From Escherichia phage vB_EcoS_WF5505, in sequence record NC_073060.1: a stretch of 47,082 bases of DNA; one strand, written 5' to 3'. A program made the position numbers and the translations under genes. How positions within the stretch are numbered: the first letter of the stretch is position 1; each line of letters starts with the position of its first letter. The notes under the pieces were generated by a model. The model saw nothing but the letters and a program-made list of their open reading frames with translations, searched no databases and was not told the origin of the DNA. This document shows positions 3,489-47,082 of the stretch, piece by piece.

Positions 3489-3495
3489 AATCACA

Positions 3496-3519
3496 AGCCC
3501 GGCTAATGTCGGGCTTTTT
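3496..3519 (+). terminator. Rho-independent terminator
   Basis: AGCCCG-loop-CGGGCT hairpin followed by TTTT. Confidence 0.6.
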
Positions 3520-3523
3520 ATTG

Positions 3524-3563
3524 CTTGACTTGCAACCAACATAGAGGCCATACTGCAACCAAT
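3524..3563 (+). promoter_or_regulatory. Promoter-like region with two TGCAACCAA(T/C) motif copies
   Basis: TTGACT then TGCAACCAAC (3531-3540) and TGCAACCAAT (3554-3563) upstream of small ORFs. Confidence 0.4.
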
Positions 3564-3585: not shown

Positions 3586-3672
3586 ATGACACGCAATGAT
3601 ATTTATGTACTGGCAATCTGGTCCGCAGCGGCCTTTATCGGAATGGTAATTTGTGAGGTGATGTATGGCTGA
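3586..3672 (+). CDS. Possible 28-aa hydrophobic peptide
   Basis: ATG after AAGGAG RBS; MTRNDIYVLAIWSAAAFIGMVICEVMYG; below track length cut-off. Confidence 0.3.
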   Translation: MTRNDIYVLAIWSAAAFIGMVICEVMYG

Positions 3673-3838
3673 GTTAATCCGCCTGATGGCGCGGGATGAA
3701 CACGTGAAAGTAACATTCTATGAAGGCGGCAAGTGCTGCCGAGTGGAGTGCTGCGACCGTGGCGTTAAAATGCAATTCGAAGGATACACGGACACTATTG
3801 TTGATATTCTTCGAGACCTGGGGACGATCCGCGGCTGA
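3665..3838 (+). CDS. Small Cys-rich hypothetical protein (57 aa)
   Basis: ATG overlaps upstream stop; contains CC...ECC cysteine pairs; not in track. Confidence 0.35.
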   Translation: MAELIRLMARDEHVKVTFYEGGKCCRVECCDRGVKMQFEGYTDTIVDILRDLGTIRG

Positions 3839-3885: not shown

Positions 3886-5028
3886 ATGCACCCGCAAACT
3901 AAAATTACCGACGAGCAATTGATCGCTGAAGTGCAATCCGGCACTACCTCGAAAGATATTGCGAAGAAATACGGCCTTTCCCTTCGTAATGTCTATATGC
4001 GCAAAGCCCGCCTGTCGAAGAAAGGTATTGGACACGGCAACGATGCTGTAATCCGTAAGCGCGTTGCCGATGGCTTCGGCGTTAAGCGTGTATCCGCCCT
4101 GGTGCGTGGCAATGGCGAGGAGGTCATGTCCTGGGTCATCACCGAGCAGGACAAGGAGCGCCAACTCGAAGCAATGCGCGCCGTTGTCGAGGGCATGAAT
4201 AGCGAAATCACACCGGCAGCACCAGTGAGCGCTCCGCCAGTCCCGATCCAGGCGCTTGACCTGCTTAACCTGTATACCGTGTCTGACTTCCACCTGGGAA
4301 TGTTGGCGTGGGGCGAGGAAACTGGCGAAGACTGGGATATGGCAATCGCCGAAGACCTTTTTTACCGCTGGTTTGTCGAGGCCTTCGCACGCGCACCGGA
4401 CGCTGGCACTGCCGTTATCAATATCCTCGGTGATATGGCGCATTTTGATAGCCTTGATGCCGTCACGCCAGCCAGTGGTCATGTACTGGATGCCGATACC
4501 CGCTACCAGAAGTTGGTCCGCTACATGATTCGCATGGTGCGCAACGTGGTTGAACTGGCGCTGAAAAAACACCATAAGGTCAAACTGCTAATCGTCCAGG
4601 GTAATCATGATGAGTCCGGTATGATTTGGCTGGCTGAAATGTTCAATACCCTGTACGAGAACGAGCCGCGCGTTGATGTGGACACGTCACCGGACGTATA
4701 CAAAATGGTGCAGCACGGTAAAACAACGCTGTTCTTCCACCACGGACACAAAGCCCGCTTTGACGCCATCGAGCCGGTTATGATTTCTAAATTCAGACAG
4801 GCTTTCGGGTCCAGTGAGTACAGCTACGCGCACGTGGGCCACTTGCACCACCAGAAGATTGTTGAATCCCGCAACATGATTGTTGAACAGCACCGGACCC
4901 TTGCCGCTAAAGATGCATACGCAAGCCGCGGCGGTTGGATGTCTGGTCGTAGTGCTAACGTCATCACCTATAGCGCCAACTACGGCGAAGTAGCGCGCTT
5001 AACCATTAGCCCGGAAATGTTGAAATGA
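3886..5028 (+). CDS. HTH domain fused to calcineurin-like metallophosphoesterase (380 aa)
   Basis: N-terminal HTH-like SKDIAKKYGLSLRNVYMRKA; phosphoesterase motifs SDFHLG, ILGDMAHFD, VQGNHDE, FFHHGH, VGHLHH. Confidence 0.7.
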   Translation: MHPQTKITDEQLIAEVQSGTTSKDIAKKYGLSLRNVYMRKARLSKKGIGHGNDAVIRKRVADGFGVKRVSALVRGNGEEVMSWVITEQDKERQLEAMRAVVEGMNSEITPAAPVSAPPVPIQALDLLNLYTVSDFHLGMLAWGEETGEDWDMAIAEDLFYRWFVEAFARAPDAGTAVINILGDMAHFDSLDAVTPASGHVLDADTRYQKLVRYMIRMVRNVVELALKKHHKVKLLIVQGNHDESGMIWLAEMFNTLYENEPRVDVDTSPDVYKMVQHGKTTLFFHHGHKARFDAIEPVMISKFRQAFGSSEYSYAHVGHLHHQKIVESRNMIVEQHRTLAAKDAYASRGGWMSGRSANVITYSANYGEVARLTISPEMLK

Positions 5029-5237
5029 TTAGACAAGTATTCATGAGCACGCAGGCCACCCGCCTGAAAGAGCTTCGCAAACAGCTTGAAGGCTTGCGCC
5101 GATTCGAACGAACGGCAGCGGCGATCGGCATGTCTATCAGTGAGCGGATCGAGATACTATCGCAAATACGCTACACAGAAGGCGCTATAAGCGAAGTAGA
5201 AAGCATGTTGACCCGATACTACGGTCGCGCCGTTTAA
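5025..5237 (+). CDS. Hypothetical protein (70 aa)
   Basis: Track ORF, translationally coupled to upstream gene. Confidence 0.5.
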   Translation: MIRQVFMSTQATRLKELRKQLEGLRRFERTAAAIGMSISERIEILSQIRYTEGAISEVESMLTRYYGRAV

Positions 5238-5244
5238 CCCTCCC

Positions 5245-5270
5245 AGCCCGCCGATTTGGTGGGCTTTTTT
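5245..5270 (+). terminator. Rho-independent terminator
   Basis: AGCCCGCC...GGTGGGCT hairpin followed by TTTTTT. Confidence 0.55.
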
Positions 5271-5354
5271 GTGCCTGTTATAATCCCCCTTAGATGGCTG
5301 GGCCGTCTCCTATGTTGCCGATGGTCGGCGCATATGCATAAAAGGGCTTATATC

Positions 5355-5906
5355 ATGGCAGAAATCAAAGTTAAGGGCCGTCGTGCCAAACTGGACGGTC
5401 GAGTAGCAGTTACCCCGCGCCGTAAACCAGGCGAGCAAACAGAACACACCAATCTTGGACCCGAGATCGAATACGGCAAGCGTCGTAAAGGCGGCAAATG
5501 CGGACGCCCGACTGACTACCGCACCGTGTATTGTGACCAGCTTCGCCGCTATTTTGCTGATGCCGTAGCCTGGCAGATCAACTACTCCGACAAGGGTGCT
5601 GCGCAAGTCATCCCTCACAACAAGATGCCGACTCTCGGTCGCTTTGCCGCGGATATTGGCGTTGGCATCGCTTGCCTGTACCGCTGGGCGCGTGCACATG
5701 AGGAGTTCGCCGAAGCAATGGCGGACGCTATGGAGTTGCAGAAAACTTTCCTGATGGAGGCAGGCGGCGTGACCATCGCGGCGGGCTTCGCAACGTTCCT
5801 GCTTAAAGCAAACCACGGCATCCGTGACGATGCGCCGCTGGATGACGACGAAGATGATAACGGCGACGTCGTTGTCGAACCTACCGGCAAAGGCCAGGGC
5901 GAATAA
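5355..5906 (+). CDS. Putative terminase small subunit
   Basis: Immediately upstream of and coupled to the large terminase; acidic C-terminus; ATG with AAGGG RBS in frame with track ORF 5256-5906. Confidence 0.5.
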   Translation: MAEIKVKGRRAKLDGRVAVTPRRKPGEQTEHTNLGPEIEYGKRRKGGKCGRPTDYRTVYCDQLRRYFADAVAWQINYSDKGAAQVIPHNKMPTLGRFAADIGVGIACLYRWARAHEEFAEAMADAMELQKTFLMEAGGVTIAAGFATFLLKANHGIRDDAPLDDDEDDNGDVVVEPTGKGQGE

Positions 5907-7291
5907 TGCGTAACTATGCGGCAGAACACCGCGCACTTGAACGCGCGATCGTAAAGCGCAACCGACCGCCACGCCCTACGCGCGTTGCGCAGGCCGTCCG
6001 CCTGTATCAGCCTGATTGCCTTCCGCACCAGGTGGAACTGCTGCGCGACACGAAGACCAAAATCCTCGGCTTGTGTTCCGGCTTCGGTGGCGGCAAGTCA
6101 TGGGTCGCGGCGCGTAAGGTCATCCAGCTTCTCACACTTAACCCTGGCCATGATGGCATCGTTACAGAACCGACTATTCCACTCCTGGTTAAAATCATGT
6201 ACCCGGAGCTTGAGAAGGCTTTCGACGAGGCTGGATTCCGGTGGAAGTTCAACAAGCAAGATAAAATCTATAGCGTGCTGGTGAAAGGCAAATGGACCCG
6301 CGTTATTTGTGAGTCAATGGAGAACTACACCCGCCTGATCGGGGTTAACGCCGCGTGGATTGTTGCCGATGAGTTCGACACCACGAAGCAGGACGTCGCG
6401 ATGGCGGCGTATCACAAATTGCTCGGTCGTCTGCGTGCGGGCCTGGTGCGCCAGTTCGTCATCGTGTCCACGCCTGAAGGCTTCCGGGCGATGTATCAGA
6501 TTTTCGAAGTGGAGAAGGATAGCCAGAAGCGTTTAATCAGGGCGAAGACTACCGATAATCACCACTTACCGGCAGACTTTATCGACACACTGCGAAGCCA
6601 GTACCCAGCAAACCTGATTGACGCGTACCTTAACGGCCTGTTTGTCAACCTCACCTCGGGCGCTGTATACAAGATGTTTAACCGCGAAGAGAACGCCAGC
6701 ACCGAGGAAGTGCAACCGGATGATACGCTGATTATCGGTATGGACTTTAACGTTACGAAAATGGCGGCGGTTGTGTACGTCAGACGGCAGCGCACTACCG
6801 AGAGCAAGGAGTTCCGCGACGAGATCCACGCAGTGGACGAATTTGTGGACCTGTTTGATACCCCGGCTATGGTTGAGGCGATCGAGGAGCGCTACCCCGA
6901 TCATTGTGCTGCCGGTCGGGTCGTCGTTTACCCGGATAGCAGTGGCAAGTCTCGTAAGACTGTTAACGCGTCATCGTCCGATATCGCGCAACTGGAAGAC
7001 GCTGGCTTCGAGGTGGAGTATGACAGCGTCAACCCGCCTGTAAAAGACAGATTGATCGCGATGAATACGATGATGTGCAACTCGAAGGGCGTGCGCCAGT
7101 ATTTTGTCAACATGGATAAATGCCCTACACTAGCGAAATGTCTGGAACAGCAGGTTTATGACCTGAAGAAAGGCGAGCCGGATAAAACCGCCGGTGTGGA
7201 CCACATGAACGATGCCGCAGGCTACCCTGTTGCGCACCTGTTCCCAGTGATTCGTCCAATCGCCGTTGTTCCAACTGTAGACTTCTACTAA
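5906..7291 (+). CDS. Terminase large subunit
   Basis: Walker A-like CSGFGGGKS, Walker B WIVADEFD, C-terminal nuclease-like region; 461 aa; followed by portal. Confidence 0.85.
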   Translation: MRNYAAEHRALERAIVKRNRPPRPTRVAQAVRLYQPDCLPHQVELLRDTKTKILGLCSGFGGGKSWVAARKVIQLLTLNPGHDGIVTEPTIPLLVKIMYPELEKAFDEAGFRWKFNKQDKIYSVLVKGKWTRVICESMENYTRLIGVNAAWIVADEFDTTKQDVAMAAYHKLLGRLRAGLVRQFVIVSTPEGFRAMYQIFEVEKDSQKRLIRAKTTDNHHLPADFIDTLRSQYPANLIDAYLNGLFVNLTSGAVYKMFNREENASTEEVQPDDTLIIGMDFNVTKMAAVVYVRRQRTTESKEFRDEIHAVDEFVDLFDTPAMVEAIEERYPDHCAAGRVVVYPDSSGKSRKTVNASSSDIAQLEDAGFEVEYDSVNPPVKDRLIAMNTMMCNSKGVRQYFVNMDKCPTLAKCLEQQVYDLKKGEPDKTAGVDHMNDAAGYPVAHLFPVIRPIAVVPTVDFY

Positions 7292-9909: not shown

Positions 9910-10210
9910 ATATGCGGCTATTGGACTGGTTATCGGTCTGGCGGTTGGATTCTGGCAGGGTGATTCCTACCGCACTGGCGTTGTGGCGAAAGCGGCGCAA
10001 GAAGCGCAAGCGAAAGCCCAACGGCAGCAAACTAAGGTTGTTGAGGGGTCGGTGAAGGCTGAGCAAGCCCGCGACGTGGAATACCGGACTATCACGAAAG
10101 AGGTTGTAAAATATGTTACGCGTCCTAACCGTCCTGATTGTAGTTTTGATGCTGAGCGCGTGCGGATCAAGCAAAGCGCCATCGACGCCGCTAACCGAGT
10201 CGGTCTATAG
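9902..10210 (+). CDS. i-spanin (Rz-like)
   Basis: N-terminal TM segment IKYAAIGLVIGLAVGFW then coiled-coil-like region; o-spanin gene embedded at its 3' end; start taken as GTG 9902 with GGGGG RBS (track start 9872). Confidence 0.6.
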   Translation: MIKYAAIGLVIGLAVGFWQGDSYRTGVVAKAAQEAQAKAQRQQTKVVEGSVKAEQARDVEYRTITKEVVKYVTRPNRPDCSFDAERVRIKQSAIDAANRVGL

Positions 10211-10343
10211 ACCGCCTTGCACCTTTGAGAATGCCTCGGCAGATCCAGACGAGGATTTGCTTGTTGATGTTAAGAATATGGAGTGTGGTGCTAAGCTAAG
10301 GGCGCAAGTGCTGGAGTTGCAGAAAATAATTCGGGGGCCGTGA
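10113..10343 (+). CDS. o-spanin (Rz1-like outer-membrane lipoprotein)
   Basis: Signal peptide with lipobox LSAC, Pro- and Cys-containing mature part; overlaps i-spanin out of frame. Confidence 0.65.
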   Translation: MLRVLTVLIVVLMLSACGSSKAPSTPLTESVYRPPCTFENASADPDEDLLVDVKNMECGAKLRAQVLELQKIIRGP

Positions 10344-10356
10344 TGGCCCCTTTTTT
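10333..10356. terminator. Bidirectional rho-independent terminator (GGGGCC-N-GGCCCC family)
   Basis: GGGGGCCGTGATGGCCCC followed by TTTTTT; separates plus-strand spanins from minus-strand island. Confidence 0.65.
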
Positions 10357-10361
10357 GTTAA

Positions 10362-10874
10362 TTACAAACGCATCGGCATGATAACTAAAAAGGCACCTCC
10401 TTTGAACAGCACGCGTGTTGCCTTGTCTACTCCCTGAAATTCCAGTTTTAAGCCCTCAAACTTATGGTCGAACAATTTAGCAATTTTGCAGGCGTCGGAC
10501 AGGTATGCCCCTTTAAACCCGATAGCCTCCACTTTATTGCTGACGAAAGACGTAACTCTTCTCCAGTCTGGAAATCGTCCGTCTACAATCTCGATGGGTA
10601 TGGTAGCTATTAATACGTCTTTACTATCGAAGAACGCGGCGGAGGTGCCGTCTATGTTGCAGTATTCGAATTTAGTAGGTAAGCGGCCTTTAATTGATAC
10701 TATTTTACTTTCACCTTCTGGTACAACCGCAGACCCGCAGAACAAACGGTGACCGTCTGTAGCCACGATGTATCCTTTCTCGTCGAAAAATACACCATTT
10801 AGGAAGTATCGGACGTCATTAGTTGCGGCGCATATCGTAGCGGCTTTAAGATCGGCGTAGTTAACTTTAATCAT
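10362..10874 (-). CDS. Truncated beta sliding-clamp (DnaN)-like protein, 170 aa
   Basis: Matches E. coli DnaN (recalled, not searched): VRYFLNGVFF, ATDGHRL, VDGRFPDWRRV and C-terminal MPMRL; start MIKVNY with GAGGA RBS. Confidence 0.7.
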   Translation of the reverse strand: MIKVNYADLKAATICAATNDVRYFLNGVFFDEKGYIVATDGHRLFCGSAVVPEGESKIVSIKGRLPTKFEYCNIDGTSAAFFDSKDVLIATIPIEIVDGRFPDWRRVTSFVSNKVEAIGFKGAYLSDACKIAKLFDHKFEGLKLEFQGVDKATRVLFKGGAFLVIMPMRL

Positions 10875-10931
10875 TTTAATTTCCTCGTGGTTATGTAGAC
10901 GATAATTCGGGGCCATTACAGCCCCCTTTTG

Positions 10932-11696
10932 TTAGCGCGGAATACCGCAGATTTCGTTTAACGTCTTCACATCCAGCGCTACTGCCGTTGACTTCGGCTT
11001 GTCCGGGTATGGAATGAATTGTTCAACTTCAGGCCACGCCGCGATCAGCTTCTTGTCAGTATTGTGCATATCCAGCACGCCGGTAACGGTTAGTTTGAAC
11101 GCGTCATACTTCGCACGCAATTCACGGCGGGCCTTGTCGTTGTGGTCCAGGCGCTTGCAGAAATCATGCTCTGCCGGGTAGTCTACGCGACCGCGTGGTA
11201 GATATATCGGCAGCGCTTTTCCGTCCTCATCCACTTCACATACTGACGCGAGCATAATTTCCTCGTACCCCGGTACAATATCGCTAACGTCAGGCGCGAG
11301 CGTATTCATATATTTTTCTTCCCAGTATCCGCGGTGCTGGCGGTAGCGGTATCCGTCGCCGCTCATATGCAGGGTACGGATGTTACCGCCTGCGTTGATT
11401 TCGAAAGTGGAGCAGTAAACGCGTCCAATGCCTTTCTGACGGTCTTTGTTATAGCTATACGTCGCCTTGTCGGTGTAAACGCTGACGCCGTACATCTGCG
11501 ACTGGTTATCGCGGATTTCTGCGATATATGCGCGTAGCTCGGCGAACGTGTGAATGCCTTCTGGCATACAGTCCAGCGTAATTGCGTACGCCAGGTCGCG
11601 AGAGGCCATCATGATTGATTTGGCTTCAGTCGCGATTTCGTGGTCGCGCAGGATGTTAGCCAGAATCTGGTTTTTAATGTCTTTTGTCAGTCTCAT
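10932..11696 (-). CDS. Hypothetical protein (254 aa), upstream partner of DnaN-like gene
   Basis: Start MRLTKD with GAGGA RBS inside track ORF 10932-11741; no recognised motif. Confidence 0.55.
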   Translation of the reverse strand: MRLTKDIKNQILANILRDHEIATEAKSIMMASRDLAYAITLDCMPEGIHTFAELRAYIAEIRDNQSQMYGVSVYTDKATYSYNKDRQKGIGRVYCSTFEINAGGNIRTLHMSGDGYRYRQHRGYWEEKYMNTLAPDVSDIVPGYEEIMLASVCEVDEDGKALPIYLPRGRVDYPAEHDFCKRLDHNDKARRELRAKYDAFKLTVTGVLDMHNTDKKLIAAWPEVEQFIPYPDKPKSTAVALDVKTLNEICGIPR

Positions 11697-11845
11697 TTGT
11701 GTTTCCTCATTGTTGGTGTGCAACCAATATAGTGCAACCAATACCTGTATTGCAAGCGAATTTTGCGATTATTTTTATCGCTGATAATATTAAAGGCGTG
11801 AAGTCGAGCGGGTGGCCCGCTCTGCCACGATCCCAGGGGGATAGC
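11697..11845. promoter_or_regulatory. Divergent promoter region with two TGCAACCAAT copies
   Basis: TGCAACCAAT at 11719-11728 and 11733-11742; candidate plus-strand sigma70 elements TTGCGA (11763-11768) and TAATAT (11785-11790). Confidence 0.45.
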
Positions 11846-30680: not shown

Positions 30681-30702
30681 TGCAACCAACCTATTGGTTG
30701 CA
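30681..30702. promoter_or_regulatory. Perfect 22-bp palindrome TGCAACCAA-CCTA-TTGGTTGCA (operator-like)
   Basis: Read directly; lies about 53 bp upstream of the 30628 minus-strand start and spans the stop of the HAD gene. Confidence 0.6.
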
Positions 30703-31161
30703 AGTAAATTTTGCTACGTTTATAGAATAAATTTTAGGGACCATATCGCTGCACGCCCGACGGATGGCGTCAATATTCTTAGCGCAGTCTTCAATGATGA
30801 CCAGTTCGGACACGTCCGCATAGCAAACCATTTTGAACACCGCGCACGCTTTAAATTCTGGCGGTGGGGTGTCGTCCAGCATGTGGCGCATGAACAACCG
30901 GCCCGTCGGGAATACTTCCAATTGCTTGGCGGTCGTATCCCAGCATTCGCGCTGCCGGTTAGTCAGATACGCTATCTCGAAGCCTTGCTCTTTGTACATG
31001 CGCAGCAACGGCAGCATGTCCATGTTCAGGTCTTCGCGGACGTGCGCTTTGTGCCACTTCGCCCAAAAGGTTGATTTGGTTTTTATGCCGGGCACCAGGT
31101 CAGCACGCGCATCACTTGAACCATTAATAACGCCATCCAGATCACAAATCAGTAGTTTCAT
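30691..31161 (-). CDS. HAD-superfamily phosphatase
   Basis: N-terminal MKLLICDLDGVI (DxDGV HAD motif I); 156 aa. Confidence 0.7.
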   Translation of the reverse strand: MKLLICDLDGVINGSSDARADLVPGIKTKSTFWAKWHKAHVREDLNMDMLPLLRMYKEQGFEIAYLTNRQRECWDTTAKQLEVFPTGRLFMRHMLDDTPPPEFKACAVFKMVCYADVSELVIIEDCAKNIDAIRRACSDMVPKIYSINVAKFTCNQ

Positions 31162-40984: not shown

Positions 40985-41235
40985 TATTTCGTCTCCCAAC
41001 GGTCAATTACTTTTTCCTCCGACGATACGGCAAAGCGAACATATTCCAGATTGGAGTCCGCCCAAATATAGAAGTCGGGGTTAGTAAATGTGGTGCGCTT
41101 AATTTGCGCGGGGTTATCGCGGCGTTTATCTATTACGGCAACGCGTGATTTAAAGTTGCCGGTACGTTCGAATAGCCAATAATAAGGGCGCTGGTCGCGT
41201 GAATCCACCGCCTCGATTAGCGTGAAGCGTGCCAT
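40984..41235 (-). CDS. Hypothetical protein (83 aa)
   Basis: Track ORF. Confidence 0.45.
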   Translation of the reverse strand: MARFTLIEAVDSRDQRPYYWLFERTGNFKSRVAVIDKRRDNPAQIKRTTFTNPDFYIWADSNLEYVRFAVSSEEKVIDRWETK

Positions 41236-41283
41236 TGTCTCGTCCTCTAAAAATAGGCCCGCAGATTAGCGGGCCGGATAATA

Positions 41284-41805
41284 TTAATCTTCTAATTCGA
41301 AATACGTTTCTACGATTTCTTTTAAATCTTTGTGGAAGTCTTCGACGTCGTCATCTTCCAGCTTGGCAACGGATTTAATTTCGAACGCTTCCAGCAGATC
41401 ATCAAATTCGTCGTTTGCGTCGTCGTCATCACCGCCCGCAATAATAGCGGCATACTGCTTGATTTCGTCGCGCATTTCTTTCAGCGGATCGGCATCTTTC
41501 TTGCCTTTACCTTTCGCCGGTGCTTTCTTAGACTTCGCTGGGGCTTCTTCTTCGTCGTCCGCGTCGTCGTCTTCTTCTACGGCTTCTTTCTTAGCCTTGC
41601 CCTTAGCCGGGGCTTTTTTGGTCTTAGCCGGAGCTTCGTCTTCAGCGTCGTCATCTTCGACCACTTCTTCTTTCGCCTTGCCATTAGCCGGGGCTTTCTT
41701 CGCTTCCTGTTTACCAACGGCAGCGCCAGCAGTTTCATAATGCTTAGCGATTACTTCCAGTGCTACTACGCCGCGTGTGATCAGGTTTACGATTTGCTCA
41801 AACAT
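41284..41805 (-). CDS. Hypothetical acidic protein with tandem charged repeats (173 aa)
   Basis: Two copies of (D/E)n-EAPAK-KKAPAKGK-KK, then acidic C-terminus; first gene of the minus-strand module. Confidence 0.55.
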   Translation of the reverse strand: MFEQIVNLITRGVVALEVIAKHYETAGAAVGKQEAKKAPANGKAKEEVVEDDDAEDEAPAKTKKAPAKGKAKKEAVEEDDDADDEEEAPAKSKKAPAKGKGKKDADPLKEMRDEIKQYAAIIAGGDDDDANDEFDDLLEAFEIKSVAKLEDDDVEDFHKDLKEIVETYFELED

Positions 41806-41906
41806 GGTATATCTCCGATTGGTTAATTTAAGTGTTCGGTGCGGTGTGCCCCGTCAACGAGGTGAATAATAGATTGGTTGCAGGCGGGGTGTCAACAACT
41901 AATTTC

Positions 41907-41942
41907 AAAAAAAAAAGCGCCGAGGCAAAATGCGACGGCGCT
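41907..41942 (-). terminator. Rho-independent terminator (minus strand) in divergent intergenic region
   Basis: On minus strand AGCGCCG-loop-CGGCGCT followed by T10; lies upstream of the 41805 start. Confidence 0.55.
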
Positions 41943-42012
41943 AACCAATAAGAGACAATGAGACGTGATTATTATTACACGCGTGCGCGCCCGTTTCAAT
42001 ATTCAAAAGGAG

Positions 42013-42041
42013 TTGACACCCTGCAATTTTAGGTGTAGTTT
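42013..42041 (+). promoter_or_regulatory. Candidate sigma70 promoter for HTH regulator gene
   Basis: Consensus -35 TTGACA (42013-42018), 17-bp spacer, -10-like TAGTTT; about 30 bp upstream of ATG 42073. Confidence 0.4.
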
Positions 42042-42072
42042 CGTTGGTCATTAACCAATAGGAGACAGAACA

Positions 42073-42402
42073 ATGCATATCAACGACGCAATCGAAATGT
42101 TAACCAATGCTGTTAGCGGTGAGACAAGCCGGTCCTGGGCTTATACCGATGCCGTGGGTGAGGTGCTATTTGAAATCGAACGTCTGCGCAGTGTCGAAAA
42201 AGAATTGCGCGCCAAGCTGGAATTGCTAAACGGTACGGCAGCAAGCAAGTTGCAAAAGCACAATGAAGAAATGGAAGAATACAAAAAGCAGGTTATCCGT
42301 TTGCGCGACGAGGGCAAGTCCTGGGCGATGATTGCCGAGTTGACCGGAATTAATCAAAGCACCGTGCGCTCCTGGGTACGCAATAATAAAACTTCTAAGT
42401 AA
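42073..42402 (+). CDS. HTH DNA-binding protein (putative transcriptional regulator)
   Basis: 109 aa; C-terminal HTH-like SWAMIAELTGINQSTVRSWV; N-terminal coiled-coil-like region. Confidence 0.6.
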   Translation: MHINDAIEMLTNAVSGETSRSWAYTDAVGEVLFEIERLRSVEKELRAKLELLNGTAASKLQKHNEEMEEYKKQVIRLRDEGKSWAMIAELTGINQSTVRSWVRNNKTSK

Positions 42403-44945: not shown

Positions 44946-45159
44946 AAATCCTGGATTGCATAATGCACGGCAGCATGATGAGAATTGCGGTCGTTGATGA
45001 ACTAGGCAACCAATGCGAGTTGGATAATGGAGAGTGAAAAATGCAGTTTGCAGTTACAGCAGATAGCGATCAACTTTTTCATACGCATGATTAATATTGG
45101 TTGCATTCAGCCTGGCACCCTGCTAGATTGGTTGCACACCAACGAGAGGACCAAACAAA

Positions 45160-45330
45160 ATGAAATTTCCAGTAACCATCAAAGACGGTAAATCAACTAT
45201 CACCTTCACCAGCAACGACCAGGGCACCTATGAAAGCGGGGCGACTTGCATGTCTACCCTGGACGATGTGATGATTCGTGTTAATTCCGGTAAAGCCTCG
45301 ATTGTTGACGACAACACTAAGAAGGACTGA
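45160..45330 (+). CDS. Duplicate of 104-274 (small early protein)
   Basis: Inside right repeat, identical sequence. Confidence 0.5.
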   Translation: MKFPVTIKDGKSTITFTSNDQGTYESGATCMSTLDDVMIRVNSGKASIVDDNTKKD

Positions 45331-45333
45331 ACA

Positions 45334-45639
45334 ATGAGAGCATTAATCTGGAAATACTCACGGGCCATAGCGAAGCTGGACGAAGCGAAAAACACAAACG
45401 GCAACGTAGACTATGCGCGCCAGTTTGCGGCACGGGCACACCAACACATCATGAGTGCGCTCGACGATATGGACGCCAGCATGGATGACCTGGGTCCGCT
45501 GCGTAAGGCTATCCATGAATACGCGCTGGCATTCTCCCGTGAGCGCCTGGCCTATCGCTTCGGTATTGGCGATAAGGCAGTGACAAACGTTGCCCGGATT
45601 AAAGCCCAGCGTGAGCTATTCGCCCAGCTTGCGAAATAA
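45334..45639 (+). CDS. Duplicate of 278-583
   Basis: Identical translation in ORF track. Confidence 0.6.
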   Translation: MRALIWKYSRAIAKLDEAKNTNGNVDYARQFAARAHQHIMSALDDMDASMDDLGPLRKAIHEYALAFSRERLAYRFGIGDKAVTNVARIKAQRELFAQLAK

Positions 45640-45648
45640 GAGGCCAAA

Positions 45649-45918
45649 ATGACCCGTAGACGCGCAAAACAGCTTTCGTGGCATATCCCCCTGCATTGCA
45701 TACGAATATGGGCTAAGAATGCGAATGAGGGCGATTCAGTGTTCTGGTGCTATCGCGACGACGTTAAGCCGTTGACGCAGACTCGCTACTTGCACCAGTT
45801 CGCAGCACAACACGATTTCAGGGTGCGGACTTCCTTGCAACCAATGGGGATCCGTATTACATTACGCCGGAAGCCCGCCGTTGAGCGGGTAGGCAAACAC
45901 TGGAGACTGAGCAAATGA
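45649..45918 (+). CDS. Duplicate of 593-862
   Basis: Identical translation in ORF track. Confidence 0.55.
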   Translation: MTRRRAKQLSWHIPLHCIRIWAKNANEGDSVFWCYRDDVKPLTQTRYLHQFAAQHDFRVRTSLQPMGIRITLRRKPAVERVGKHWRLSK

Positions 45919-46259
45919 TTCGAGTAACCGCACGCCACGAACAATCGGGGGCCACTTACGATGTAATCGACGTTCGCGGCGCGTTCGTCATCTTCGGACG
46001 GGGTGACGACCGGCTGGCGCTGCCGATCGGTATGCTGAGCACATACGACTATTTCAAGCATAACGTCCGGTGTGGCGATGTGCTGCGCGATAAGCGCACC
46101 GGTGAGCTATGGACGGTGGCGAGTATTTGGGTGAAAGATAAACGGCAGCACACGTTATTGCTCGCCCGCCCGGATTGCAAACAGCAAACTATTAACACTA
46201 TTGGCCTGGTGGACTACACCCGCGTAGGCCGTAACGCTACCTGGAGACTGAGAAAATGA
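45915..46259 (+). CDS. Duplicate of 859-1203 (paralogue A)
   Basis: Identical translation in ORF track. Confidence 0.6.
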   Translation: MIRVTARHEQSGATYDVIDVRGAFVIFGRGDDRLALPIGMLSTYDYFKHNVRCGDVLRDKRTGELWTVASIWVKDKRQHTLLLARPDCKQQTINTIGLVDYTRVGRNATWRLRK

Positions 46260-46888
46260 AATTACTATTCCGCCGTAACTCAGATGGCTATATCCTGAAG
46301 CCGATCCAGACCCTATCGAACTGGGTACGCCTCCACCACGTTGCGAGTGATAAAGTCTGGTGGGCGACTAAGGCAAAGCTGCCGGAGTACTACGAAATCC
46401 TCACACACGATATCGAGCGCGGCGATGTGCTGCGGGATATTCGCGACGGGCAATTGTGGGTCGTGGAATACGTGGGTCGGCACGGCCTGCGTATGACGTC
46501 CCGCAAGGATGGCGTAGCGGGCAACATGGTCAAGGGCATGACTTACTTCGGGCTACTCCACTACGAACGAGTGGGCCGCAAGTACAGCCTGCGTGCGCGC
46601 CAGCCTCATGAGCGAGCGAACGCCATAGCGGACGTCGTTAACCGCGTAGCGCGGGAGGTGGAGCAGAAGACACGCGTTGAGTTCTGCAAGTCCCAGCCAG
46701 CCTATGCAACCTACGACGCGAGCAAAGCGCAGGAATTGATCCGCAGTGCCACGCATGAAATCATCAATCACGTTGATGCCATGACGAACGCCAAGCGCCA
46801 GGCCAGCGAATACGGCGTAGGATTCATCCGTGTCGAACAAGACGGCAACATGACCGCCATCGACCCGCGCACGGTAATACTGAAATGA
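46256..46888 (+). CDS. Duplicate of 1200-1832 (paralogue B)
   Basis: Identical translation in ORF track. Confidence 0.6.
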   Translation: MKLLFRRNSDGYILKPIQTLSNWVRLHHVASDKVWWATKAKLPEYYEILTHDIERGDVLRDIRDGQLWVVEYVGRHGLRMTSRKDGVAGNMVKGMTYFGLLHYERVGRKYSLRARQPHERANAIADVVNRVAREVEQKTRVEFCKSQPAYATYDASKAQELIRSATHEIINHVDAMTNAKRQASEYGVGFIRVEQDGNMTAIDPRTVILK

Positions 46889-47009
46889 GCGCAACTATCC
46901 GTGATATGCTTATGCATAACCGCTTTGAGATAGGCGGGAGAGTGTTCTGCAATTACTTCGTGGCGCGTGCTTGGGCGCGCCATATCGGAAAACCAGTAGG
47001 GGCAATACG

Positions 47010-47082
47010 ATGCTACACGATTTGATATTTTGGTTTGGTTTGGGGTGTGCGTCACTCTTTGCTATAGTGCTGGCGCTGTTGA
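47010..47082 (+). CDS. 5' fragment of duplicate of 1954-2241, truncated by window end
   Basis: Same sequence as 1954-2026; the window (and the repeat) ends inside the gene. Confidence 0.4.
   Translation, partial: MLHDLIFWFGLGCASLFAIVLALL

Follow-up and report, generated by a model that had tools for sequence, protein, structure and literature searches.

The stretch of DNA analyzed here (the window, 47,082 nucleotides [nt], from Escherichia phage vB_EcoS_WF5505; NC_073060.1) comprises one 45,056-bp genome, after which the first 2,026 bp of that genome recur exactly. It represents a Dhillonvirus-like coliphage, the first 25 kb sharing ∼95% DNA identity with Escherichia phage vB_EcoS_WFI and other members of Dhillonvirus. 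An earlier note on this DNA had singled out one gene, for a protein with a helix-turn-helix (HTH)-like segment and a calcineurin-like metallophosphoesterase (MPE) domain, and had placed it upstream of the gene for the small terminase subunit (TerS). The MPE gene lies precisely at the position given there, and the genes for TerS and the large terminase subunit (TerL) are located downstream. The MPE gene starts with ATG and is preceded by an AGGA ribosome-binding sequence. Its coordinates, and those of the features discussed below, are collected in Table 1.

The domain layout of the MPE protein was read from its translation and from an AlphaFold2 (AF2) model (mean predicted local distance difference test score [pLDDT], 81; predicted template modeling score [pTM], 0.70). 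The model was built on an alignment of 40 sequences, consisting of the window protein and 39 homologues from three separate searches, with 38 to 97% identity to the query. The N-terminal segment previously described as HTH-like indeed folded into three helices in the model and gave weak matches to the GerE and HTH_28 profiles. Structure and profile thus both point to a tri-helical HTH, for which DNA binding is predicted. It is followed by a linker module with a long beta-hairpin between two helices, in which S70, G77, and W83 were invariant and K85 and D89 were nearly so. The remainder of the chain forms the MPE core, a double beta-sheet sandwich with flanking helices that runs to the C terminus. 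General domain models narrowly missed this core: PF00149 scored 20.0 bits and PF12850 scored 21.9 bits, with gathering cutoffs of 21.5 and 27, respectively. Because both general Pfam MPE models score just under their curated cutoffs, most homologues carry no precomputed Pfam domain. The family is a divergent MPE branch missed by general models.

All five MPE motifs could be read in the translation and fell within the AF2 core, in agreement with the fold and the full motif set claimed in the earlier note. They were invariant across the alignment, and motifs I, II, and V aligned with those of Thermotoga maritima Mre11 on profile comparison. Since the motifs are invariant over a range of 38 to 97% identity, the MPE domain is probably an active enzyme rather than a scaffold. 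Outside the five motifs, H186, D188, T194-P195, H199, L201-D202, D204, R206, K209, H316, H336, D343, and R355 were also invariant, and G349-G350-W351 was nearly invariant. A His three residues after the metal-binding Asp, here H186, is typical of Mre11 and has been implicated there in exonuclease activity. The additional invariant residues were concentrated in three loops (residues 143 to 149, 189 to 203, and 343 to 351; nt ∼4312 to 4332, 4450 to 4494, and 4912 to 4938), and it was only in these loops and in N-terminal residues 1 to 3 that the pLDDT of the AF2 model fell below 50. The loops follow motifs I, II, and V, the usual sites of the MPE substrate pocket, which suggests one conserved substrate or an extra metal site, with the loops becoming ordered on binding. 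The extra invariant His and Asp residues may belong to a further site for metal or substrate, or the loops may adopt a partner-induced fold. The loop after motif II provided one of the two peptide patterns by which 80 loci were picked out of bacterial genomes.

Table 1. Features of the MPE locus and the adjoining packaging genes in the window
Feature	Coordinates	Strand	Remarks
Terminator-like hairpin ending the lysis cassette	3495..3516	+	9-bp stem with 6 G-C pairs, then T run
Sigma-70-like promoter candidate for the MPE unit	3525..3554	+	TTGACT, 18 nt, CATACT; consensus match, with the number found equal to shuffle expectation
Cys-rich 57-aa open reading frame (ORF) in the MPE unit	3665..3838	+	No match in Pfam, PHROG, NCBIfam, or PADLOC
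HTH-MPE gene	3886..5028	+	380 aa; PHROG 704 member; orthologue of T1 ORF16 (ST16) and TLS gp66
N-terminal tri-helical HTH, residues 9-44	3910..4017	+	AF2 helices 9-17, 22-29, and 33-44; pLDDT 85-88
Conserved linker module	4042..4200	+	AF2 helix 53-59, long beta-hairpin 64-73/79-88, helix 90-105
MPE catalytic core, residues 126-380	4261..5025	+	Runs to C terminus in AF2 model
MPE motif I, D134-F-H136	4285..4293	+	Invariant; aligns with SDWHLG of T. maritima Mre11
MPE motif II, G182-D183-x-x-H186-x-D188	4429..4449	+	G, D, H, and D invariant; aligns with GDLLHS of T. maritima Mre11
Family-specific loop after motif II, residues 189-209	4450..4512	+	T194-P195, H199, L201-D202, D204, R206, and K209 invariant; S197 nearly so
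MPE motif III, G239-N240-H241-D242	4600..4611	+	Invariant
MPE motif IV, H286-G287-H288	4741..4749	+	Invariant
MPE motif V, G318-H319-L-H321	4837..4848	+	G, H, and H invariant; aligns with GHIH of T. maritima Mre11
Helical 70-aa ORF in the MPE unit	5025..5237	+	phrog_20931; ATG overlaps the MPE stop codon (ATGA)
Terminator-like hairpin closing the MPE unit, before terS	5245..5265	+	9-bp stem with 6 G-C pairs, then TTTTTT
Extended -10 element TGTTATAAT (TGnTATAAT)	5276..5284	+	Candidate terS/terL promoter, read from the sequence
TerS gene	5355..5906	+	Downstream of the MPE gene
TerL gene	5906..7291	+	After TerS

By profile comparison, the window protein belongs to a very large family that is already catalogued and annotated as PHROG 704 ("DNA repair exonuclease"): the match (E = 8.2e-161) joined residues 5 to 380 to positions 2 to 390 of the 390-position profile. 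Deposited Dhillonvirus proteins were 97 to 99.5% identical, the closest being that of phage vB_EcoS-101114BS4 (99.5%), and such near-identical proteins are named "DNA repair exonuclease," "calcineurin-like phosphoesterase," or "wHTH protein." BLASTP aligned the protein over its full length with ST16 of phage T1 (YP_003929; 45% identity, E = 4e-109) and with TLS gp66 ("proof-reading exonuclease"; 48% identity, E = 3e-112). By tblastn, 2,005 of 50,697 phage records contained a match, which covered at least 80% of the protein in 1,678 of them. Identity was 95 to 99.5% in Dhillonvirus (∼150 records), ∼75% in Kagunavirus and Jerseyvirus, and 43 to 55% in Drexlerviridae, Klebsiella Webervirus, and Jedunavirus; it was 31 to 39% in Rhodobacter and Ruegeria Casjensviridae, 32% in marine Vibrio siphophages, and 29% in Campylobacter Fletchervirus. 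Copies at least 95% identical were present in ∼150 records, compared with 157 records sharing DNA with the window. When 1.84 billion cluster representatives (50% identity level) were scanned exhaustively with HMMER, 4,636 sequences matched at an E value of ≤1e-3 and 1,129 at ≤1e-30, and the family representatives were nearly all 370 to 420 aa long.

Within Drexlerviridae, the gene is persistent, being present in 508 of 522 members (PMC13164509). The names given to family members by depositors contradict each other (oxidoreductase, Ser/Thr phosphatase, DNA polymerase II small subunit, transcriptional regulator, wHTH protein, proof-reading exonuclease, DNA repair exonuclease, and calcineurin-like phosphoesterase), and those of PHROG 704 are computational only. 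The window protein matched none of the PADLOC-DB defense-protein models at E values of up to 0.1, and NCBIfam gave nothing usable. Two genome-scale phage essentiality papers, one of them a screen of T4, T5, SUSP1, and PTXU04, were free of the terms for the family and its taxa that were looked for.

Fusion of an HTH to the MPE domain, which the earlier note had regarded as unusual, proved to be the norm in the family, i.e., among the 2,005 matching phage records and the 4,636 representatives. The N terminus diverges fastest: identity to the alphaproteobacterial clade was 18% for residues 1 to 60, 27% for residues 61 to 120, and 47% for the MPE core. The type of HTH also varies by clade (Sigma70_r4_2, LysR-type HTH_1, HTH_50, HTH_23/28, and Fis-type), and some members carry two HTH modules. 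Profile matches of the HTH in homologues lay at or near threshold (Sigma70_r4, 25.3 bits versus 24.1 in P0383; precomputed assignments PF08281, PF00126, and PF18024). Campylobacter phage members lack the HTH and start at the conserved hairpin, retaining the linker module. An HTH of changing type and number, kept as a family norm, fits a nucleic acid target.

Fold and profile searches ranked Mre11/SbcD and PolD DP1 nucleases first and PP1/calcineurin phosphatases last, with small margins and marginal sequence E values. In the fold comparison, YfcE scored 12.9, and PP5, PP1, and calcineurin scored only 8.4 to 9.1; Foldseek agreed in placing Mre11-DNA complexes on top. When a profile of the MPE core was compared with all PDB sequences, the first eight matches were all Mre11/SbcD chains (E = 0.016 to 0.26), followed by the Pseudomonas putida "Nuclease MPE," and tDlHlG and GDllHs of the profile were aligned on SDWHLG and GDLLHS of T. 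maritima Mre11. The core profile was needed for this signal: the whole protein and the full-family profile gave spurious repeat-protein matches and weak HTH matches and were discarded. Comparison by hmmsearch and hhalign with Escherichia coli SbcD, CpdA, YfcE, ApaH, and LpxH and with lambda NinI gave SbcD the top rank and NinI the lowest or second lowest. Among predicted viral structures in BFVD, relatives extended to proteins of Gram-positive and Cellulophaga phages, often automatically annotated as "DNA polymerase II small subunit," and a typical phage SbcD appeared only at rank 48, well below the family's own relatives.

The MPE gene appears, from the signals in the surrounding sequence, to form a short transcription unit of its own together with two small ORFs. 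Owing to the terminator-like hairpin and the extended -10 element between the gene and terS, its adjacency to the packaging genes marks an operon boundary rather than functional coupling. Similar signals were found in relatives: in T1 and tonijn, strong terminator-like hairpins follow the stop codon of the orthologue within at most 50 nt (the one in T1 is annotated as a terminator), and in KpV52, an annotated terminator lies directly after the family gene. The flanking or overlapping small ORFs were considered as a conserved partner and rejected, since they lack homology to the small ORFs that flank the gene in phages of the Jerseyvirus, Campylobacter, T1-like, and Rhodobacter groups. Specifically, the 57-aa ORF is unlike the upstream neighbor in Jerseyvirus, and the 70-aa ORF is unlike the overlapping downstream ORFs in Jerseyvirus and a Campylobacter phage.

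The position before terS, likewise called unusual in the earlier note, is specific to this type of genome. The close relative Haito_Bas83 shows the order helicase-primase, small ORFs, two holins, endolysin, small ORF, MPE gene ("DNA repair exonuclease"), and small ORF, after which the record wraps around. In Drexlerviridae, the family gene lies ahead of the lysis genes; in T1, TLS, and tonijn, it is the last in a helicase/VRR-NUC/Dam operon and precedes the holin-endolysin-spanin cassette. In Jedunavirus, it ends a helicase/primase operon. It follows the genes for DNA ligase and RusA in Campylobacter phages and precedes those for a DNA methyltransferase and a deoxynucleoside monophosphate (dNMP) phosphatase in a Ruegeria phage. 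In Jerseyvirus, it lies in a small island opposite in direction to the flanking tail genes. In a phage of this group, Salmonella phage S532, we observed a four-gene cassette at 4747 to 7155 that encodes a superinfection-immunity-like membrane peptide, the MPE protein, a small ORF, and a Rha-like DNA-binding protein, and that ends in a bidirectional terminator-like hairpin (7136 to 7155). In a widespread type of E. coli prophage (mEp010-like), the gene is located between a replication initiator or antirepressor gene and the gene for DnaB helicase. In three such loci (L010 to L012; gene at 10001 to 11119), it is flanked by a Rha/ANT antirepressor-like gene on one side and the gene for a DnaB-type helicase on the other, and the proteins fall into clusters with hundreds of members; this position is the usual helicase-loader slot of lambdoid phages.

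At 71 loci from bacterial genomes, the two closest large ORFs to either side of the gene were surveyed, and no single strong functional partner emerged. Lysis enzymes and holins were the most common upstream neighbors (∼20 loci), and Nin-region nucleases, dNMP kinase, dGTP diphosphohydrolase, integrase, terminase, and Q were scattered over the remaining loci. In Drexlerviridae without an SH3 gene, the next gene is most often annotated as polynucleotide kinase or dNMP kinase (PMC13164509). No gene for a Rad50/SbcC-type ATPase was annotated or detected beside the MPE gene in the close relative and in eleven other contexts, and no SMC or AAA_23-type family was present among the top 25 of 68 downstream and the top 25 of 43 upstream neighbor families listed.

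Taken together, we consider it about an even chance (probability, ∼0.5) that the protein is an HTH-tethered, metal-dependent DNA phosphodiesterase that acts without Rad50 in phage DNA metabolism. DNA as the substrate is inferred, as are the chemistry and the biological role. The protein would consist of a stand-alone Mre11/SbcD-like nuclease core that has neither a capping domain nor a Rad50/SbcC partner. Its variable N-terminal HTH, probably as a dimer, would bind duplex DNA and bring the core to it, the two parts being joined by the conserved hairpin/helix module. D134, H136, D183, N240, H288, H319, and H321 would make up the dinuclear center, with H241 and H186 as catalytic helpers, and cleavage of DNA phosphodiester bonds would leave 3′-OH and 5′-phosphate ends. 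The gene would be transcribed as a short separate unit where the early/middle genes end, and the enzyme might break down host or competitor DNA for nucleotide salvage, process replication and recombination intermediates, or do both. Its various neighbors across phages support a function of this kind: they include genes for helicase, primase, VRR-NUC, Dam, DNA ligase, RusA, NinB/NinG, DnaB, dNMP kinase, and methyltransferase as well as nucleotide salvage genes. Of the three activities proposed in the earlier note, that of a DNA nuclease is the best supported, and a protein phosphatase and an anti-defense enzyme are disfavored.

Several observations weigh against this interpretation. The margins in the fold comparison were small, with MJ0936 at 13.7, Vps29 at 13.3, LpxH at 13.1, and Rv0805 at 12.0 versus 14.3. 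Sequence likeness to Mre11 was marginal (best E, 0.016) and mainly confined to motifs I and II; all pairwise profile scores with the E. coli and lambda reference enzymes were insignificant, the hhalign probability with E. coli SbcD being 13.6%. The C-terminal capping and DNA-binding domain of Mre11/SbcD has no counterpart in the window protein, where the last MPE strands complete the chain (residue 380), and the Rad50/SbcC partner of these enzymes was not found near genes of the family in the contexts examined. The most conserved family-specific loops had a pLDDT below 50, so that the substrate pocket is unreadable from the model. Genomic context was mixed, as lysis genes were the most common upstream neighbors in prophage loci and Rha/ANT-type accessory genes occurred nearby, and members in temperate prophages fit poorly with a purely host-DNA-destroying role. 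Moreover, our literature searches, which took in papers on Dhillonvirus, Drexlerviridae, defense escape, CRISPRi-ART, and transposon essentiality, turned up no biochemical, genetic, or structural work on a family member.

Other explanations have to be weighed against the same evidence. The fold and the nucleotide metabolism neighbors would also allow a small-molecule phosphoesterase, with 3′,5′- or 2′,3′-cyclic nucleotides, cyclic oligonucleotides, dinucleoside tetraphosphates (Np4N), or (deoxy)nucleoside di- and triphosphates [(d)NDP/(d)NTP] as substrates. Such an enzyme could manage nucleotide pools or counteract CBASS, Pycsar, Thoeris, or type III CRISPR signaling, roles that we disfavor. 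A DNA-binding HTH, which is the family norm, would be of no obvious use to a soluble hydrolase, and to our knowledge, the anti-CBASS and anti-Pycsar enzymes described so far use folds other than MPE. In addition, nucleases were the only sequence-level matches in the PDB, and the gene behaves as a core, persistent gene rather than a variable accessory one (PMC13164509), all of which makes a small-molecule substrate unlikely. Alternatively, the protein might be a transcription regulator that binds phage promoters or RNA polymerase and switches on the late lysis and packaging genes, the MPE domain having an accessory or sensing role. In several unrelated lineages, the gene lies at the early/late boundary beside lysis genes; terminator-plus-promoter arrangements flank it, the N terminus matches models of sigma-70 region 4 and LuxR-type HTHs, and one depositor annotated a homologue as a transcriptional regulator. 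However, the catalytic core is the best-conserved part of the protein and the HTH the least conserved, the Campylobacter phage members lack an HTH altogether, and the position relative to the late genes is not fixed, as seen in Jedunavirus, Jerseyvirus, and E. coli prophages. Nor are transcription factors with an MPE domain known to us, and we regard this function as improbable.

An end-healing enzyme, i.e., a 2′,3′-cyclic phosphodiesterase or 3′-phosphatase resembling the MPE domain of bacterial Pnkp, might repair tRNA or DNA ends cut by defense nucleases. DNA ligase adjoins the gene in Campylobacter phages, the next gene in Drexlerviridae is often annotated as "polynucleotide kinase" (PMC13164509), and weak matches to the PdeM model (E = 0.059) and to "Nuclease MPE" 6nvo (E = 0.94) were obtained. 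These PdeM- and Pnkp-type similarities are not significant, however, an HTH would be unexpected in tRNA repair, and the "polynucleotide kinase" of the window is encoded in a different operon and matches a HAD phosphatase model only; end healing is thus distinctly improbable. An RNA repair trio of kinase, MPE, and ligase was likewise tried and rejected, as the kinase is only HAD-phosphatase-like, the putative ligase ORF has no Pfam match, and no kinase or RNA ligase was recognized. The gene whose relatives are called "polynucleotide kinase" (30691 to 31161, minus strand) matched a HAD-superfamily phosphatase model (Acid_phosphat_B, E = 4.8e-5, below cutoff) and has no kinase domain; from its sequence, the product looks like a stand-alone Pnkp-type 3′-phosphatase domain. 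Finally, a Ser/Thr/Tyr protein phosphatase of the lambda NinI type, acting on host or phage proteins, would belong to the same superfamily. Some depositors have named homologues Ser/Thr phosphatase, and lambda ninI, itself a gene for an MPE phosphatase, is found directly before Q and the lysis genes. The signatures GDxHG, GDxVDRG, and GNHE of the PPP (phosphoprotein phosphatase) class are absent from the window protein, and we consider this activity highly unlikely.

If the protein is instead an HTH-tethered DNA phosphodiesterase, a specific role can be proposed. According to the 2024 reannotation of TLS (PMC11447400), both T1 and TLS break down the genome of the host and recycle the nucleotides, by means of an early gene that has yet to be identified. 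The family is a reasonable candidate for this function in T1-like phages. The broader proposal, that T1-like and related virulent siphophages use these proteins, as Rad50-independent, Mre11-like nucleases tethered to DNA by an HTH of their own, to dismantle the host chromosome and salvage its nucleotides, is speculative, and we would give it a small chance. VRR-NUC, HNH, and RecE-type nucleases are alternatives for host DNA degradation by T1 and TLS. In a more exotic variant, the fast-evolving HTH would steer the nuclease to specific foreign DNA, such as that of satellites or competing prophages.

As a sequence feature, the gene is ordinary, since proteins up to 99.5% identical have already been deposited and the family is catalogued. 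Its wider interest lies in being a persistent gene of several abundant enterobacterial phage families that has no experimentally established function. Carriers include the T1-like phages and groups in wide use for therapy and biocontrol (Klebsiella Webervirus, Salmonella Jerseyvirus, and E. coli Dhillonvirus). A Rad50-independent, HTH-tethered Mre11-like nuclease, if confirmed, would show a well-known nuclease fold at work in a new arrangement and would provide a concrete candidate for the host-DNA-degrading function of T1 and TLS. Degradation of host DNA bears on the frequency of generalized transduction and hence on the safety of therapeutic phages.

Elsewhere in the window, positions 1 to 2026 are identical to 45057 to 47082 (zero mismatches), and the ORFs at 278 to 1832 recur at 45334 to 46888; this repeat is either assembly wrap-around or terminal redundancy. 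A role of the MPE locus as a replication origin or pac site was considered and rejected: no iteron-like repeats were found in or near the gene, the HTH is unlike TerS, the likely origin region near 42 kb is distant, and the T1 gene lies ∼32 kb from terS. The region at ∼41000 to 42100 is one of the two lowest-GC kilobases of the window (GC content, 0.483; the other, 10001 to 11000, has 0.477) and coincides with the minimum of the cumulative GC skew. With the leftward replication operon on one side and the rightward helicase-primase operon on the other, this region probably holds the early promoter or the origin. The 109-aa product of 42073 to 42402 (plus strand), encoded directly 5′ of the gene for the 754-aa helicase-primase, carries a clear HTH at its C terminus (HTH_23, HTH_28, and Sigma70_r4_2) and is not similar to the HTH of the MPE protein. 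It is annotated as "transposase" in a relative and is more likely a regulator or origin-binding protein than a transposase. Within the plus-strand block of head genes, two minus-strand ORFs of 184 and 269 aa (10362 to 11741) occupy the lowest-GC kilobase (0.477) and may constitute an inserted accessory (moron-like) cassette.

Among known systems, the closest counterparts of the window protein are the other members of PHROG 704 (T1 ORF16, TLS gp66, and proteins of Dhillonvirus, Kagunavirus, Jerseyvirus, Webervirus, Jedunavirus, and some Casjensviridae), which share the HTH-linker-MPE layout and the invariant residues. Only the position of the gene differs: here it is flanked by the lysis cassette and terS, whereas in T1 and TLS it precedes the holin gene. 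Type I and II motifs (DxHLG; GDLxH) are shared with the Mre11/SbcD nucleases (Mre11 of T. maritima, Pyrococcus furiosus, and Methanocaldococcus jannaschii; SbcD of Staphylococcus aureus and E. coli; by extension, T4 gp47 and T5 D13). Only 185 to 189 residues of their 319- to 362-residue chains align, though, and unlike these enzymes, the window protein has an N-terminal HTH and hairpin module. With no capping domain, and with no Rad50/SbcC-type partner gene found across the contexts covered, it differs from a canonical Mre11/SbcD. Compared with archaeal PolD DP1, an MPE 3′-5′ proofreading exonuclease, and with the inactive B subunits of eukaryotic polymerases, it lacks the OB-fold domain and the PolD large subunit; furthermore, no DNA polymerase is annotated in the record of T1, although this phage carries a family member.

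P. putida MPE/PdeM (PDB 6nvo; TIGR04123) is a stand-alone, ligase-associated, Mn-dependent single-stranded DNA endonuclease that works without a Rad50 partner. It is encoded beside DNA repair genes, just as the Campylobacter phage members adjoin DNA ligase, and its matches to the window family, which are weak and not significant, lie around motif III; in contrast to the window protein, it comprises ∼215 aa and has no HTH. The class III cyclic-nucleotide phosphodiesterases Rv0805 and E. coli CpdA have no DNA-binding domain and a different motif II context; they gave no sequence-level PDB match to the family, and CpdA scored below SbcD. Lambda NinI, a PPP Ser/Thr phosphatase, resembles the window protein in being a phage-encoded MPE whose gene lies near the late-gene switch, but it has 221 aa and no HTH, and the PPP class ranked lowest among the MPE classes in both structure and sequence. 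As a graded placement, these comparisons point to a distinct MPE clade whose nearest characterized relatives are DNA nucleases.

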